From NCBI GenBank assembly GCA_963664705.1, contig OY761556.1, positions 4,096,001 to 4,160,000 on the forward strand: a DNA stretch of 64,000 bases. The letters run 5' to 3'. Source of the DNA: Acidobacteriota bacterium (GTDB taxonomy: Bacteria; Acidobacteriota; UBA6911). The notes beneath the pieces were generated by a model, which was not told where the DNA came from, ran no database searches, and was given only the letters and a program-made list of their open reading frames with translations. This document shows positions 43,364 through 64,000 of the stretch, piece after piece. Every line of letters starts with the position of its first letter. The stretch's first letter is position 1. Made by a program: the position numbers and the translations under genes.

Positions 43364-44371
43364 ATGCCCAAGGTACGCCTGAAGACGGGTTGGCTGTACC
43401 ACCCGGTAACCATCTTCCTCTCCATCCAGGTTCTCTGGATCCTGCTGATGGTCGTGTGGATCTGGTGGTACATCGAAAAAAATACGCAACTTCGCGCCAT
43501 GGCGGAGCGGTTGCGGACTCACGTCGAGGTGGACGGCTTCGGCTGGATCCCGATGCTGGTCGGGGCTCTCCTGCTGACCCTGTTCCTGGCCGGCGCCACC
43601 GTCATCTTCATCTATTACGTCAAACAACACAGCCTCAACAAAATGCAGCGTGCCTTTGTCTCCAACGTGACCCACGAACTCAAATCGCCGGTCGCCTCGA
43701 TTCAACTGGCGCTCGAAACAATGGCGATAAGGGAACTCTCGCCGGAGAAAAAGCGCGAATACCTGGCCATGATGCTCGACGACACCGAGCGCCTCACCAC
43801 GCTGATCGACAGAATCCTCGGAGCTGCGCGCATTGAGAAAATGCGCGGGCGATATACACTCGCACCCGTCAGCATGCGGCATTTCCTCGAAGAGGTCCTC
43901 ACCGAGGACCGGCATCTCTACGAGAAAGACGGCCGCACCATCATTCTGGAAAAGGGACGAGATGCCCGCGTTGCCATCGACCGAGCAGCCATGCGCGTCG
44001 TCCTGGCTAACCTGCTCGAAAACGCGGCACGCTATTCGCCCAGGGACTCCAAAATTCGGATTCGCCTGCACCGGGACCTGCGGAGCTGCCGGCTCGATGT
44101 CATCGATACCGGCGATGGGATCAGAAGCAAAGACCTCAAAAACGTGTTCAAGATGTTCTGGAGAAGCTCGGAAGAACAGAAATCACGCGTGCGCGGCACA
44201 GGGCTCGGACTCTATATCGTTCGCAATATCGTAAAAGATCATGGAGGCAAGGCATGGGTGTCCAGCCAGGGGATCGGCCGCGGATCCACCTTCAGCGTGC
44301 GCCTGCCCCGCTTCCGGAAATATTGGAGTCTCCCGGCCCGAAAGAGCCTGGTTGCGCAAGCGGAAAAATAG
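43364..44371 (+). CDS. Membrane sensor histidine kinase
   Basis: Two TMs; VTHELKSP; NLLENA; D.G.GI; GTGLGL. Confidence 0.94.
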   Translation: MPKVRLKTGWLYHPVTIFLSIQVLWILLMVVWIWWYIEKNTQLRAMAERLRTHVEVDGFGWIPMLVGALLLTLFLAGATVIFIYYVKQHSLNKMQRAFVSNVTHELKSPVASIQLALETMAIRELSPEKKREYLAMMLDDTERLTTLIDRILGAARIEKMRGRYTLAPVSMRHFLEEVLTEDRHLYEKDGRTIILEKGRDARVAIDRAAMRVVLANLLENAARYSPRDSKIRIRLHRDLRSCRLDVIDTGDGIRSKDLKNVFKMFWRSSEEQKSRVRGTGLGLYIVRNIVKDHGGKAWVSSQGIGRGSTFSVRLPRFRKYWSLPARKSLVAQAEK

Positions 44372-51453: not shown

Positions 51454-51558
51454 AAATTCTGGAGAGAAATTCTGGACACCCATCCAAATTCTGGACACCC
51501 ATCAATTCATATCAAATTTCAAATTCTGGACACCCATCAATTCATATCCGCATCAATT
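51454..51558. repeat. Solitary tandem cluster of the CTGGACACCCA (Y1-element end) motif
   Basis: aaattctggacacccatc at 51467, 51486 and 51521, plus a partial copy at 51454 and aattcatatc twice. Confidence 0.88.
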
Positions 51559-51707
51559 CGCTGGTGTCGACAATTAGACTAGACGCTCCGAGTTGACGGC
51601 GGGAGACCACCGCACGCCCTGCATCTCGCCAGCAAGAGCAAATTTGCATCCACCACAGGCCTTTGCCGCCGGGACGTCGGTGCTCCTGGCAGGCCATGGC
51701 TATAGGC

Positions 51708-59386: not shown

Positions 59387-59462
<76 letters not shown>

Positions 59463-59534
59463 TGAAAACAAAAGACTTACGGCAAATTAAACATCCCGCC
59501 AAAATCCAGAATAACAAATTTGGTTCCAATGCAA

Positions 59535-60877
59535 AAACCTGGACACCCATGATTTGTTCGGAAAACCGAGCGAGGAGTTTCGGGAAAGATCCCGGTAGAA
59601 AAGCTCCGACTTTCGATGCGAGCTGTTGGAGAATACCATAAGAAGAATTGTGATGTTCTTCGTAGTTGATGAGCTATTCGAGAGTATTTTACGCGGGTAG
59701 GCAGGCGGACATTGGATTAATCCCGAAAATGCGCTGAGTCCAGAATACTCCGGACTATGCGAAAACGGATCGAGCGGTCGACAAGCCTTTGAACCAATGC
59801 CGGTTGAGCCGGTCCGCGAATTCACGCATGTGGGTCAGGCTGCCAGCGGCCAGCAGGAATGTGGAACCAAAATGAGATATGGTTTCCCTCCATTCCTTGG
59901 GAACAGCTCCGATGCGATTCAGGATCGGGGCAAGGCGGGCGTCGATGAACCCGGGCTTATCAGAGCGAATCACGCGTCCCGATCGGTCGACCAGATCAAA
60001 ATATTCGGCTGCGGATATGTCGAGGATGCCCCGTCGGCCGGGGGTGGACTGAATCGGAGCCAGCCAGCTGTCGGAAGCAGTTTCAAGTGGAGAATGATCG
60101 AAAGCCGGGTCCGAATCACTGGGTTGAGAGGCTGGTTGCTGGGACAAGGATTGGCGATGCCAGGCGCGGAGACGCTCCTGGATGCTGGCGAAGTCGCTGT
60201 CTTCGGGAGTAGAAGCAATACCGGCCCGGACCAGATTCAAATCAACATAGACCATGCAGGCTGTGATAGCGGGGCCATCCAGGAGTGCCTGGCATTTGAA
60301 GCGGGATTCCCAGAAGCGGCCCTTGACGATATCCTCCTTGTTGGCCTTGCGCGCGATGAATTCATTGAATTTGGACATGAACCAGCTCAAGCTGCCCAAC
60401 CGCTTGCGCAGAACAGCAATACGTTCCGGACAATCGATTAATGCCTGGATCTGTTTATCTAGAGAAGGAATGGGTTGTTTGCAGATGCGAGGTTTCCTGG
60501 GGCAGAGCTCAAGCCAGCGAGCGGCGACATCGGAATCAGACCAGGAGCGAAGAATGTCGGGTCGAGTGCGCAAGATGGAATGCACGTGGTTTTCCATGAT
60601 GGCGTAAGCGCATACGTCGATGGCGAAGATGCCGGCAAGATGTTTCAAACGATCGAGAATCCATTTTTTGCGATGGGAGAAGTCCCGGCCGCTAAGCGGG
60701 TCATATCCGCAAAGATAAGCTCTGCGGACGCATCGGCTGATGCAGTGATAAACACCTTCCTCCCCTTCGATGACATAGTTGTTTCTTGCCAATCCCATGG
60801 TTTGCCTCCTTGCATAGTTACTAATGGCGAACCATGGGAATTGAGCGAAGAAATATTCAAAAATAGTGGGTGTCCAG
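59535..60877 (-). mobile_element. Y1/HUH transposase element bounded by inverted CTGGACACCCA / TGGGTGTCCAG motifs
   Basis: Motif at 59539-59549 and inverted at 60867-60877; identity with the second copy stops exactly at the motif. Confidence 0.75.
59755..60798 (-). CDS. HUH/Y1 tyrosine transposase (IS200-like, RAYT-related)
   Basis: YHCISRCVRRA, AYAIMENHVH (HuH), GRFWESRFK.Q.LLD, YVDLN.VRAG; GGAGG RBS. Confidence 0.92.
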   Translation of the reverse strand: MGLARNNYVIEGEEGVYHCISRCVRRAYLCGYDPLSGRDFSHRKKWILDRLKHLAGIFAIDVCAYAIMENHVHSILRTRPDILRSWSDSDVAARWLELCPRKPRICKQPIPSLDKQIQALIDCPERIAVLRKRLGSLSWFMSKFNEFIARKANKEDIVKGRFWESRFKCQALLDGPAITACMVYVDLNLVRAGIASTPEDSDFASIQERLRAWHRQSLSQQPASQPSDSDPAFDHSPLETASDSWLAPIQSTPGRRGILDISAAEYFDLVDRSGRVIRSDKPGFIDARLAPILNRIGAVPKEWRETISHFGSTFLLAAGSLTHMREFADRLNRHWFKGLSTARSVFA

Positions 60878-60929
60878 TCTCTCAGTCTCTACTAATCGCT
60901 ATGGGAGGCCGGAGATCTTCAAACGGACG

Positions 60930-61315
60930 AAGGCAGCCAGCTTGCCAGCACTGACCTACACATGCTGAACGGCATCAGGGTCAGCATGGATGGCAAGGGC
61001 GCTGGCGCCAAAGTCTTTGCGGAGCGGCATTGGCAGACGATTAAGTATGGGCAGTTATGCCCTCATGATTACAGTTCAAGGGATGACGCAAAATGCATTT
61101 GAATGAGTATCGGGAGTTTTACAATACCATCCGGCCGCATCGGTCTCTTGACACCAGAACCCTAGATGCGGCTTATTCGAGGACGCCGGAGCAGAAAAGC
61201 CTGCGGCATAAACTGAAGCTAAGTGAGACGCCTTGTTTTCGCTCGGCGTCTCACTAATAACCTTGCGGATTACGCTTAATTCCTACAAAAGCTGTCCAAA
61301 CCACCGGAACCACCG
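60930..61315 (+). pseudogene. IS3-family transposase remnant with right end
   Basis: GIRVSMDGKG, FAERHWQTIKY, FYNTIRPHRSL with frameshifts; end gctgtccaaaccaccggaaccacc; start approximate. Confidence 0.78.
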
Positions 61316-61395
61316 TTTATTAGGTGATTCGGATGCACTCGATCGCGTGATACCTACCAATAAAACATCCTTTGGTAGAAGAGTCTGAATTTTAC

Positions 61396-62166
61396 CTAGC
61401 GTTTTTTACGATAAACGGCAACCGTAGTCATGCTAAGACCCAGAAGCAATAATGTCACGCTGGCGGGTTCTGGCACTTCCTTTGACGGTTCGGTGAACCC
61501 AGTTGCCATGGTGATCCAATCGCCTGGTTTAAACGAAGAGCCCGAGACCTGAAACGCAAAATAGCCGGCGGCGGCCCAATATGTAGGATCATACGTTTGA
61601 TGCTGGAAGCAGCCTAGGCTGTATGATGGGGCAAACCCATACAATAATCCGTTAGCTGTGGATACACCGGGATCATAGCATCCTGGTCCTGTTGCCATTC
61701 CTCCACTGGTGATAGCTGAAGCGGGAACATCCAGACCAATGATCGGATTCCAGGCAGCAGCGCCCTGATAATCTTCCACGTAGAGGCTCCCGCCCGCTTC
61801 CACATAAGCGTCTACTTCTGCACCGTGTGTGCCAAGAGCGGCATAGGGGTCCGAGCAACATGTCCCCGGTGAGGCGAAAAACAAGGCGCTGTAATCGCTC
61901 AGGGTTACGCCGTCAAGTGAAGTTACAAAAGCAACCGGCACTCCGCCTGTAGCGTAACCGGCATATGAGAAATCCTTGATTACCAGCACGGGTAATGTCG
62001 AGGTCCCCTGCAGCTGCTTGAAGACCGGGATAGTGTAGGCAGCAATATGATGGTAACTGGCAGCTTCCGATCCGGCTAGGAAAATTGTGCTAGCATAGAT
62101 GGAAGATGCTCCGCAGAGCAACAGTACTGCCATAAAGCAAACTGTAACTGAAGTTATCTTTCGCAT
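61396..62166 (-). CDS. PEP-CTERM sorting domain protein
   Basis: Signal peptide; C-terminal VPEPASVTLLLLGL...YRKKR. Confidence 0.92.
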   Translation of the reverse strand: MRKITSVTVCFMAVLLLCGASSIYASTIFLAGSEAASYHHIAAYTIPVFKQLQGTSTLPVLVIKDFSYAGYATGGVPVAFVTSLDGVTLSDYSALFFASPGTCCSDPYAALGTHGAEVDAYVEAGGSLYVEDYQGAAAWNPIIGLDVPASAITSGGMATGPGCYDPGVSTANGLLYGFAPSYSLGCFQHQTYDPTYWAAAGYFAFQVSGSSFKPGDWITMATGFTEPSKEVPEPASVTLLLLGLSMTTVAVYRKKR

Positions 62167-62286
62167 AGAATTTTGACGTCCTCCCAAAGTTTAACACCGG
62201 CCCGCGTCAATGGCGCGCCAGTGAGATCTTCCAAAAAGGCAGAACATCCTCCCCTTATTTGGATTTTTATTTTTCACGTAACTTCT

Positions 62287-62505
62287 ATGCAATAAATGAT
62301 CCAGTTTTATATGTTGTTTATTTACTTATATTTATTCCCGAACATAAAATGGATCTGTAAGTTTCTCCGACATTTGGTTGCGAAAAATCTACTATGCCCT
62401 TAGGAAAAATATTCAAAAAAAGGCACACTCGTTATGTAAAACCATTACAGTCAATTACTTACAATCCTACGGCCATTGCTGGCAAAGTTGTAAGGAATTC
62501 CGACA
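62287..62505 (-). promoter_or_regulatory. Sigma-54 promoter plus enhancer-like TGT-N11-ACA boxes (PrsR type)
   Basis: Minus strand TGGATCATTTATTGCAT (GG-N10-GC, 62303-62287); tgtaagtttctccgaca 62356-62372; tgtaaggaattccgaca 62489-62505. Confidence 0.75.
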
Positions 62506-62798
62506 AAGTCAAGCTTGACCGACCGTGCGGGATTGTCGATGCAGTTTGGGTGGCAGAAGCTTATGAGAAGCCGATGGCTCGGTTTCCCCGCAATGATACA
62601 GAGAACGGATCCAAATTCCCGGTGACGGTCTGCAACGGACGAGACTGCAAAGCGTTAGATTACGGTGCAATGAACGGGGCGTGTTCCCTTTGCGTAATCA
62701 TGGTGGTTCTCTTTTGTGTTCACAAAATATGTTTTTGGATGGGCATTTCCAGGGATGCTTTCAGGGCTCCGCATAAAACAATGGGTGTCCAGGTTTAC

Positions 62799-63200
62799 GG
62801 AACCGCAATACAGAACCGCAATGTGTTCCGGACAATTGGTTAAGGCCTGGATCTGTTCAGCCCGAGGAGGAAGGGGTTTTTTGCCGATGCAGGATTTTCG
62901 GGGACAAAGCCCAAGCCAGCGAGCGGCGACATCGGAATCAGACCAGGAGCGAAGAATGTCGGGTCGAGTGCGCAAGATGGAATGCACGTGGTTTTCCATG
63001 ATGGCGTAAGCGCATACGTCGATGGCGAAGATGCCGGCAAGATGTTTCAAACGATCGAGAATCCATTTTTTGCGATGGGAGAAGTCCCGGCCGCTAAGCG
63101 GGTCATATCCGCAAAGATAAGCTCTGCGGACGCATCGGCTGATGCAGTGATAAACACCTTCCTCCCCTTCGATGACATAGTTGTTTCTTGCCAATCCCAT
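62799..63200 (-). pseudogene. Truncated second copy of the Y1/HUH transposase (N-terminal third)
   Basis: Same MGLARNNYV...NHVH start; homology lost after CPEHIAVL, lacks the YVDLN catalytic Tyr; ORF runs on into the end motif. Confidence 0.88.
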
Positions 63201-63325
63201 GGTTTGCCTCCTTGCATAGTTACTAATGGCGAACCATGGGAATTGAGCGAAGAAATATTCAAAAATAGTGGGTGTCCAGGTTTACAGTACAGTGGGTGTC
63301 CAGATTTATCTCCAGATTTACAGAT

Positions 63326-64000
63326 TTATCTTCGTTCGGCAAAAGGATCAGTGCCATTCCATTTGCCACCGCCGGAGATAACTGTATAGAGCGCATCGTA
63401 ATGCATGGTTTCAAAAATGGTAAACTCGTTGAAGGATATCATCTCCCTGTCATCCACATACTGGCGTTCCTTGGACAATGCGGTTACGGGAGGTATAACC
63501 GCCAATCCGCGGTTCCATCCGGTAACGCCCGGGCCAAAAACCGTAATGCCGGGTCTGGGCCCTTGTCCGAGCGACATCGTATAGGCACTTTCGCGGTCGT
63601 GGATATTGTGGACCTGATGAAATCCCAGCCCGGTAACATAACTGATGCCCAGGGGATTCAATCCCAATTTATAATCCATTAATTCCGAAGCTGCATCAAA
63701 ATATCTTTGATCGCCGGATAGCATCCATTGCAGCAAAGAAGCCGCAGCATATTGCGGCTGCCGCACATTGTGCCCCCACGCCTTTCCATCTGGATTATTT
63801 CCGATCGGATAGGCATGCCGACGCAATTCCTCGATATTGGCATCGGCTGCATCCTTGATCGCCTTTTTAAAATAATTGACGATCTCCGGATCGGTCGCGG
63901 TTTTCTTCTCCACGATATAGGAAAGGATATACGCGGGATTGTCAAACTTGGCATCGTTTAAGGAATATCCCGGCGTCTCATACAGATTATCCTTCAAGCC
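63326..64000 (-). CDS. Glycoside hydrolase family 9-like protein, C-terminal part (5' partial)
   Basis: DY.LG.NP...SYVTG.G, H.R, YVDD......NE.TI. Confidence 0.8.
   Translation of the reverse strand, partial: GLKDNLYETPGYSLNDAKFDNPAYILSYIVEKKTATDPEIVNYFKKAIKDAADANIEELRRHAYPIGNNPDGKAWGHNVRQPQYAAASLLQWMLSGDQRYFDAASELMDYKLGLNPLGISYVTGLGFHQVHNIHDRESAYTMSLGQGPRPGITVFGPGVTGWNRGLAVIPPVTALSKERQYVDDREMISFNEFTIFETMHYDALYTVISGGGKWNGTDPFAERR

Follow-up and report, generated by a model that had tools for sequence, protein, structure and literature searches.

We analysed a 64,000-nucleotide stretch of an Acidobacteriota bacterium genome (contig OY761556.1, positions 4,096,001 to 4,160,000), referred to below as the window. 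Towards its right end lies an intact gene, predicted to encode an HUH/Y1 transposase, between two inverted copies of the nine-base word TGGGTGTCC. A truncated second copy of the gene lies further right. Short sequences just outside the words are repeated in tandem. The gene, its terminal words and these end duplications are the subject of this work. The relevant features are listed below, the neighbouring genes last.

59539..59549, minus strand: terminal word at the downstream end of the full element (outward reading TGGGTGTCCAG); an end without duplication
59755..60798, minus strand: intact HUH/Y1 transposase-like gene, 347 amino acids, apparently of the TnpA_Y1 subclass 2.3 type (H71-V-H73, F162-W-E, Y184-V-D-L-N-L)
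60867..60877, plus strand: terminal word at the upstream end of the full element, 69 bases ahead of the start codon
60875..60890, plus strand: 8-base tandem duplication, two copies of CAGTCTCT (cagtctct), from the last C of GTCC to 7 bases outside
62776..62798, plus strand: lone element end with an A-rich lead, TGGGTGTCC at 62782-62790 and the tail AGGTTTAC
62800..62822, plus strand: target 10-mer GAACCGCAAT duplicated just past the lone-end tail (copies 62800-62809 and 62813-62822)
62811..63200, minus strand: transposase copy 2, truncated, about codons 1-130
63269..63331, plus strand: upstream end of copy 2, with two terminal words (63269 and 63293) and differing tails
51454..51575, minus strand: gene-less cluster of three co-oriented words (51472, 51491, 51526) with nested duplications
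59387..59462, plus strand: tRNA-Thr gene, 79 bases from the element end
60900..61211, plus strand: decayed integrase-type insertion-sequence gene fragment, 68-70% identical to three intact paralogues
63326..64000, minus strand: 3' part of a glycoside hydrolase family 9 (GH9) gene, its stop codon within the last duplicated unit

An earlier note on this DNA had placed the motif at 59539 (minus strand), 60867, 62782, 63269 and 63293. All five positions were confirmed, as were the flank duplications described at 60875, at 63300-63331 (GH9 stop codon included) and in the cluster at 51454. The note took the motif to end both transposase copies. This holds for 59539, 60867, 63269 and 63293; position 62782 is instead a lone plus-strand end that points into the broken coding sequence. 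The two copies do stop matching at the motif, and diverge directly after ...TGGGTGTCCAG at their upstream ends.

The duplication at 60875..60890 has zero shared letters at its join. Beyond the two words at 63269..63331 are three nested copies of (C)CAGATTTA(TCT), and the duplicated series ccagatttatct/ccagattta/cagatttatct spans 63300-63331 with the GH9 stop codon (63326-63328) inside it. The lone end at 62776..62798 is joined to the interior of transposase copy 2, and its tail AGGTTTAC is not present in the sibling target sequence. The gene-less cluster at 51454..51575 has a degenerate opposite word near 51562-51575 and contains tccagaattt twice; it is likely a decayed mini-element.

The transposase and its terminal word

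The 347-residue protein carries the motifs NHVH, FWE and YVDLNL, with H73 and Y184 separated by 111 residues. Residues H71, H73, W163, Y184, D186, L187 and N188 are at least 90% conserved among 127 aligned sequences. PF01797 is matched by 66 of these 127 relatives; the window protein has no Pfam match of its own, and its NF047646 score of 28.9 falls below the cut-off of 80. An alignment-based structure model (pLDDT 94.1) found its best structural match in 4er8, the E. coli TnpA_REP (E 2.4e-4, TM 0.72 over the target), followed by IS200/IS605 enzymes (PDB 2xm3, 2vjv and others). Sequence searches against solved structures returned nothing relevant for the transposase. The C-terminal tail is helical in the model, and no Pfam helix-turn-helix family of the subclass 2.1 type was present among the 127 members. 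Motifs, alignment and structural match thus support the HUH/Y1 assignment in the earlier note, and the gene product is predicted to be such an enzyme. The enzyme family numbers 1153 clusters at E up to 1e-30. Homologues are present in 20 of the 29 other genomes of the genus, and the closest named homologue records are Acidobacteriota. The genome has one separate IS200-type gene; the queries used found no second RAYT-like family in it.

The word is enriched throughout the 6.89 Mb genome, in line with the earlier note. There are 45 exact copies of the 11-mer TGGGTGTCCAG, against 2.5-3.5 expected from Markov models. Within the window, 0.78 matches are expected at up to one mismatch and 10 were found, 9 of them exact; those outside the element loci are at 44255, 51472, 51491 and 51526. 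The one at 44255-44265 stands alone, with no partner nearby, and is likely due to chance. The element itself is present at unrelated sites as nine full copies and one truncated copy (that in the window), 1.3-1.45 kb long and 84-100% identical. Every full copy (9/9) is bounded by GGACACCCA and TGGGTGTCC, 1326-1443 bases apart. Some copies are 99.5-100% identical, and two with identical genes occupy different sites. The genome also has 11 gene-less clusters in which two words lie back to back, 27-135 bases apart.

Several other features of the copies and words were noted. The copies are mosaic: two alleles of a segment around codons 103-127 (window 60400-60520), and of the 3' region, are shuffled among them, which suggests recombination between copies. 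At genome positions 1362850-1363090, an array of a short GGACGTT/GGACGAT-type unit is interleaved with terminal words. At 1429444-1429935, words face each other across a 137-base hairpin-like repeat, which we take to resemble a long REP.

We compared the ends of relatives at 97 loci, a set made up of strong matches only, with 22 duplicates removed and the nine own copies included. The sequence GG[GA][TC]GTCC faced outward upstream of the gene in 68 of 89 flanks and downstream in 70 of 91; it had the opposite orientation in 9 and 6 flanks, respectively. The earlier proposal that a short word marks the ends of homologous transposases is therefore borne out. The end consensus is AAAWR(A/G)TGGGTGTCCA. 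By eye, 17 distant loci without the exact pattern comprised seven with TGGGTGTC or TGGATGTC (another last base), five with AAGTGCATGGCACC, three with TTTGGATGGCCCC and two with nothing clear; some of the 17 had nested repeats. Among gammaproteobacterial records, 13 were found and eight fetched, and in six of the eight a GG[GA]TGTC core is found at both ends, or one of the ends is a variant. Among distant relatives, the word's last C is variable. In two P. shioyasakiensis strains, the element lies at the same locus with about 82% identity, different end arrays and one duplication of about 90 bases.

Recognition of the ends by way of a hairpin was rejected. No stable hairpin was found when five end sequences were folded (z-scores +0.38 to -1.76), the only recurring fold being a 3-pair loop over the word, of which the last C is itself variable.

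Frequency and geometry of the duplications

The first seven bases outside GTCC recur within 80 bases at 62 of the 137 element ends. Recurrence was 5/136 in the far flank and 7/135 inward; it was 2% with swapped flanks and 0.7% in a further control. Isolated words showed it once in 129 cases, and the duplications are thus tied to element ends, as the earlier note had implied. In this genome 14 of 19 ends score under a strict rule. Repeating sites account for 12/28 in gene-less clusters, 17/32 at transposase ends and 5/148 single sites.

These frequencies bear on a reading in which the repeats reflect enzyme-independent slippage at a pyrimidine-rich site, or faulty assembly. The tails are T/C-rich, as slippage of this kind would have it. 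Conversely, repeats are rare at isolated words and single sites, and their polarity is strictly outward. Assembly was checked against other contigs. Contigs of runs X1 and X3, which derive from one sample, possibly the source, and are hence non-independent, reproduce the window junctions (60848-62867 and 63259-64000) letter for letter. The last 30 letters of an X5 contig, which comes from another study, are the same as in the stuttered flank of the 2.287 Mb copy. No joint bypassing the element was listed in these data, in which contigs alone covered the locus and the one raw-read run reached only the tRNA gene. The pattern also recurs in many other, independent assemblies and in finished Pseudoalteromonas records. 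The duplications are not an assembly artefact. Slippage or artefact is largely refuted as an explanation, and we consider it scarcely credible.

We mapped 174 duplication units at 66 ends. The outer border was at 6-10 bases outside GTCC in 139 units and within 15 bases in 172. The inner border varied: 111 units start at -1 to -3, 17 at -4 or -5, and 46 at -8 or further inside, with starts ranging overall from 1 to 245 bases inside the word. The period was 9-12 in 86 of the 111 short units. Because unit ends cluster outside the word while starts vary, the duplication unit has one nearly fixed border and one free border. The longest units are tandem duplications of host DNA, 232 and 251 bases in length, at gene-less words (2138727-2138959 and 1489315-1489566). 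Their outer border is just outside the word and their inner border 223 and 245 bases within it; their polarity is that of the short units.

A nick-and-rejoin mechanism and its alternatives

Viewed on the opposite strand, every unit begins 7-9 bases 5' of GGACACCCA and extends inward to a varying degree. Because this arrangement fits single-nick HUH chemistry, we lean, if by a little, towards the following mechanism. The gene and its two inverted TGGGTGTCC ends form a mobile element. Its enzyme would nick one strand at a fixed distance outside the word, and the duplications would result from inward copying and rejoining of the aborted copy. The enzyme would bind the word and nick the strand that reads 5'-flank-(7-9 nt tail)-GGACACCCA-element, its tyrosine staying linked to the 5' end of the tail. 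The 3'-OH of the flank could then prime displacement synthesis into the element by a host polymerase. Synthesis would mostly cover 9-12 bases and halt on entering the word, perhaps against the bound enzyme; sometimes it would stop just past the word, and rarely it would continue for 200-250 bases. Attack of the new 3'-OH on the tyrosine link would leave a tandem copy with one fixed and one variable border, for which homology would not be needed. Repeated cycles would give nested arrays, and synthesis that reached the far end would duplicate the entire element with its tails. The cut position is apparently set by distance and not by a dinucleotide. Gene-less mini-elements bear the same scars as element ends, and the same enzyme may act on them in trans.

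Parts of this scheme have published counterparts. In the accessible text of PMC8266576, any 3'-OH oligonucleotide resolves the TnpA_REP phosphotyrosine link, and the legend to Fig. 7B of PMC3333891 sets out a nick-prime-rejoin amplification model for BIMEs. The earlier note had spoken of repeated nicking and rejoining, or of slipping. Nick-and-rejoin survives as the best inference; plain slippage is disfavoured by the count at isolated words and by the composition of the joins.

Single duplications were informative about the joins. Of 44, 26 were clean, with no extra letters; the overlap was 0 in 13 of these, 1 in nine and at least 3 in four. Simulated blunt joins gave overlaps of 0 (49%), 1 (30%), 2 (12%) and 3 or more (9%). 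At these 26 clean joins there was no excess of microhomology over the simulated joins, which leaves microhomology-driven slip-back unsupported. Eleven of the 13 zero-overlap joins end at +7 to +9, without a shared dinucleotide.

The published BIME model would instead require two cuts on the TGGGTGTCC strand. A variable nick in or before the word would prime outward copying, and a second cut 7-9 bases past the new word would free a 3'-OH to rejoin. The products are the same. According to the parts of the literature available, E. coli TnpA_REP cleaves on either side of its site and also at a distance from it (PMC3333891), and in a group 3 enzyme cleavage at CC is guided by GTGG (PMC8266576); here, the word is preceded by G or A plus TGG and ends in CC. 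However, two sequence-specific cuts predict at least 2 shared letters at most joins, and 22 of the 26 clean joins have 0 or 1. Unambiguous starts also fall at -1, -2, -3, -10, -19 and -21, at differing dinucleotides. We judge the two-cut model distinctly unlikely.

The origin of the tails could be read at two junctions. The copy at 2.287 Mb lies within a perfect 59-base target duplication (2287514-2287572 and 2289112-2289170) that includes the last 28 bases of the neighbouring gene. Orthologous searches returned 80 loci for this site. Of the 11 examined, two of which were identical, seven have the two neighbours side by side and lack a word at the junction; this one locus supplies the comparison with empty sites that the earlier note had proposed. 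The closest orthologous empty site ends in the same residues. The tails beside the words at this copy are absent from the duplicated target. The target of the lone end at 62782 is the transposase gene, whose sequence a sibling copy supplies, and the match to sibling copies starts about 20 bases to the right of the word. Because the tails are absent from the target at both junctions, they travel with the element end there, to judge from the DNA sequence, and a target origin of the tail is ruled out at these two places. Where the target is readable in this way, the duplications appear mostly to copy the element's own end and not the target.

Target-site duplication as a general property was also rejected. 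A direct flank repeat of at least 14 bases was found at one of 59 loci, the 2.287 Mb copy; the maximum was 11 in 300 random flank pairs, and repeats of 8 or fewer are indistinguishable from chance. Same-genus empty sites were sought with three flank proteins, which gave no or only distant orthologues, and with a TatC-like query, which found a paralogue.

These junctions are relevant to the idea that the arrays are footprints of elements that repeatedly inserted into existing ends and were lost from them imprecisely, or that they arose when sister copies exchanged strands unequally. Lone ends do occur (62782 and the 51454 cluster). Some arrays mix words with different tails, siblings share inner units and differ in outer tails, and locus L066 carries beside its end a sequence resembling the end of locus L040. 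Yet the empty orthologous sites at the one testable locus have no word, and most units begin inside the word and repeat the tail of their own locus, as the swapped-flank control indicates. Footprints of this sort seem to us quite improbable.

Other observations count against the single-nick mechanism. No exact 7-base repeat is seen at 75 of the 137 ends, which include kin and are not independent samples; the seed rule needs at least 5 matching bases outside the word and so misses shorter units. Extra letters, unaccounted for by a clean join, occur in 18 of the 44 single duplications and at 35 of 141 short junctions; 11 of the 18 have at least 4, and the insert is often a variant unit. Past the last unit, small repeats show a mild excess (17/134, compared with 7, 9, 3, 5 and 1 in five control windows). 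Tails differ between near-identical copies and so are not simply carried intact. At 62782 the duplicated sequence is a target 10-mer and not the element end; this and the small distal repeats are more like re-priming by a polymerase. No target duplication above background is present at 58 of 59 loci, and the insertion step is unexplained by the model. Finally, a tandem duplication, read as sequence, would by itself be silent as to which strand was cut.

Several of these points are what would be seen if the enzyme made a break 7-9 bases outside the word and a host polymerase on the outward strand ran off, added stray bases, re-annealed further back and recopied, several times within a single event, before joining the target. 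The extra letters at joins are C/T-rich (127/179), the repeat at 62800-62822 is templated by the target, and small repeats lie distal to the last unit. Furthermore, very young copies already hold several units, and 30 letters of one array recur unchanged in another study. However, clean joins share no more letters than blunt joins do, and the 232- and 251-base duplications would need long-range re-annealing on at most 2-3 shared letters. We regard run-off and re-annealing as unlikely. Clues to whether scars form in place or at insertion are that this one array is unchanged over 30 letters between two studies, that two strains sharing a diverged copy at one locus differ in their arrays, and that the long duplications occur at words without a gene.

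Returning to nick-and-rejoin, the nested duplications likely record a nick 7-9 bases outside the word, aborted copying and rejoining, seen across the family. The accessible literature leaves open how repeats are spread by RAYT-type enzymes and whether any of these enzymes can still mobilise their own genes. The family described here is large and has young intact copies, a minimal 9-base end and a footprint that predicts the strand and position of the cut. If correct, the mechanism adds a mode of transposition in which single-strand chemistry acts on symmetric inverted ends, and it gives bacterial genomes a site-directed source of tandem duplications. A broader claim is possible, although we think it less likely than not: that this is a distinct bacterial transposon class. 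Its RAYT-related enzyme would still move its own gene, use two equivalent 9-base inverted ends as rolling-circle origins and rely on a distance ruler instead of a base-paired guide, with duplication of up to hundreds of bases beside any active end as a by-product. Domesticated REP systems could have arisen from such a mobile state.

Neighbouring genes and comparison with known systems

The upstream end of the window element abuts the decayed integrase-type fragment at 60900..61211, presumably IS3-like. A PEP-CTERM protein gene (61396-62187) sits between the two transposase copies, and the copy at 2.144 Mb also adjoins a protein with a similar C-terminus. The region about 120 bases to the left of the lone end (62660-62781) is 70% identical to genome positions 5746287-5746427, where the word is absent. 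A tRNA gene is found 79-197 bases away from three of nine full copies and two of 16 gene-less clusters (window 59387-59549; genome positions 374477-374686 and 1304095-1304271). Targeting of tRNA genes as a rule was discarded: three of nine copies lie 79-117 bases behind a tRNA gene, but the fetched flank contains a tRNA gene at only 5 of 66 other loci. Ten GH9 orthologues end 1-10 residues after DPF or just before it. In another genome, a family element lies about 70 bases behind a GH9 gene in the opposite orientation; the 3' side of GH9 is possibly a repeated landing site. Around 4260390-4260406/4261741-4261760 and 1305770-1305800 in the genome, two neighbour genes obtain their stop codon from the element tail or stutter, and an 8-base direct repeat flanks the 4260 kb copy.

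The earlier note could match the mechanism to nothing described. This does not stand, since precedents exist in TIRtrons (PMC3733652), TnpA_Y1 subclass 2.3 (PMC6006769) and the BIME nick-prime-rejoin model (PMC3333891), as far as the accessible parts of these papers go. We found no description of TGGGTGTCC ends or of end duplications in open full texts or in the supplements of PMC6006769; subscription journals, insertion-sequence databases, figures and bioRxiv supplements lay beyond the scope of that search.

In the available text of Quentin et al. 2018 (PMC6006769), subclass 2.3 proteins have a median length of 325 residues, a median HuH-to-Y spacing of 110 and the motifs NH[Y]H, WE and YVDLNP. 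No REP-like flanking repeats and no IS-like identity between copies are reported there (mean 74.8%). The window protein is alike in length (347), in its HuH, WE and YVDLN motifs, in its 111-residue spacing, in having several copies per genome and in lacking a GTAG REP; its model likewise has the Y1 core fold with insertions and a long C-terminal tail. By length, motifs, spacing and fold, the protein fits subclass 2.3, as far as its sequence indicates. Unlike the published members, as described in that text, the family here combines 9-base inverted ends with mini-elements, polar duplications and copies that are as much as 100% identical, and its tyrosine motif is YVDLNL/M, with L in place of the last residue P.

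TIRtrons, or TIRYTs, are described in the available text of Di Nocera et al. 2013 (PMC3733652) as tyrosine transposase genes framed by terminal inverted repeats and not by REPs, the repeats also being found alone, as dimers and in clusters. The accessible part of PMC6006769 assigns 26 TIRYTs to subclasses 2.1, 2.2 and 2.5, and none to 2.3. The shared feature is a Y1 gene between inverted repeats unrelated to GTAG REPs (here in 9/9 full copies). In contrast, the ends here read TGGGTGTCC and not the GGGGWSAS consensus of most, though not all, published TIRs, and neither the end duplications nor mobility as a unit form part of that TIRtron account.

REPtrons (TnpA_REP/RAYT, BIME, REPIN) provide the closest solved fold, 4er8, and likewise involve gene-less paired repeats spread in the genome (PMC3333891, PMC8266576, PMC5581495; available parts). 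Tandem amplification by nicking, priming and rejoining was proposed there too (PMC3333891). In these accounts REPtrons are mostly single-copy and are said not to move as a unit; recognition involves GTAG plus a hairpin, with cuts at CT/CA chosen by a guide. The present element, compared with those descriptions, has no GT[AG]G foot with a stable hairpin, has many young copies and has a fixed end set by distance. Single-copy vertical inheritance does not describe its nine full copies, although a diverged same-locus copy exists in the two P. shioyasakiensis strains.

IS200/IS605 elements share the HUH/Y1 core fold, an autonomous multi-copy element and, usually, the absence of target duplication. 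Their ends are two different subterminal hairpins on one strand, and their TnpA is short with a Y---Q motif; here the ends are symmetric inverted words, and the protein, at 347 residues, is twice as long and has a YVDLN motif.

IS91/ISCR, Helitrons and Replitrons are of the rolling-circle type, with a different enzyme class and non-identical start and stop ends. The likeness to them lies in the proposed step alone, in which an end is nicked, the flank primes and synthesis displaces a strand into the element. The ends here look equivalent, in contrast to theirs, and aborted starts are apparently kept as tandem scars. The element likely works like a rolling-circle element at its ends.

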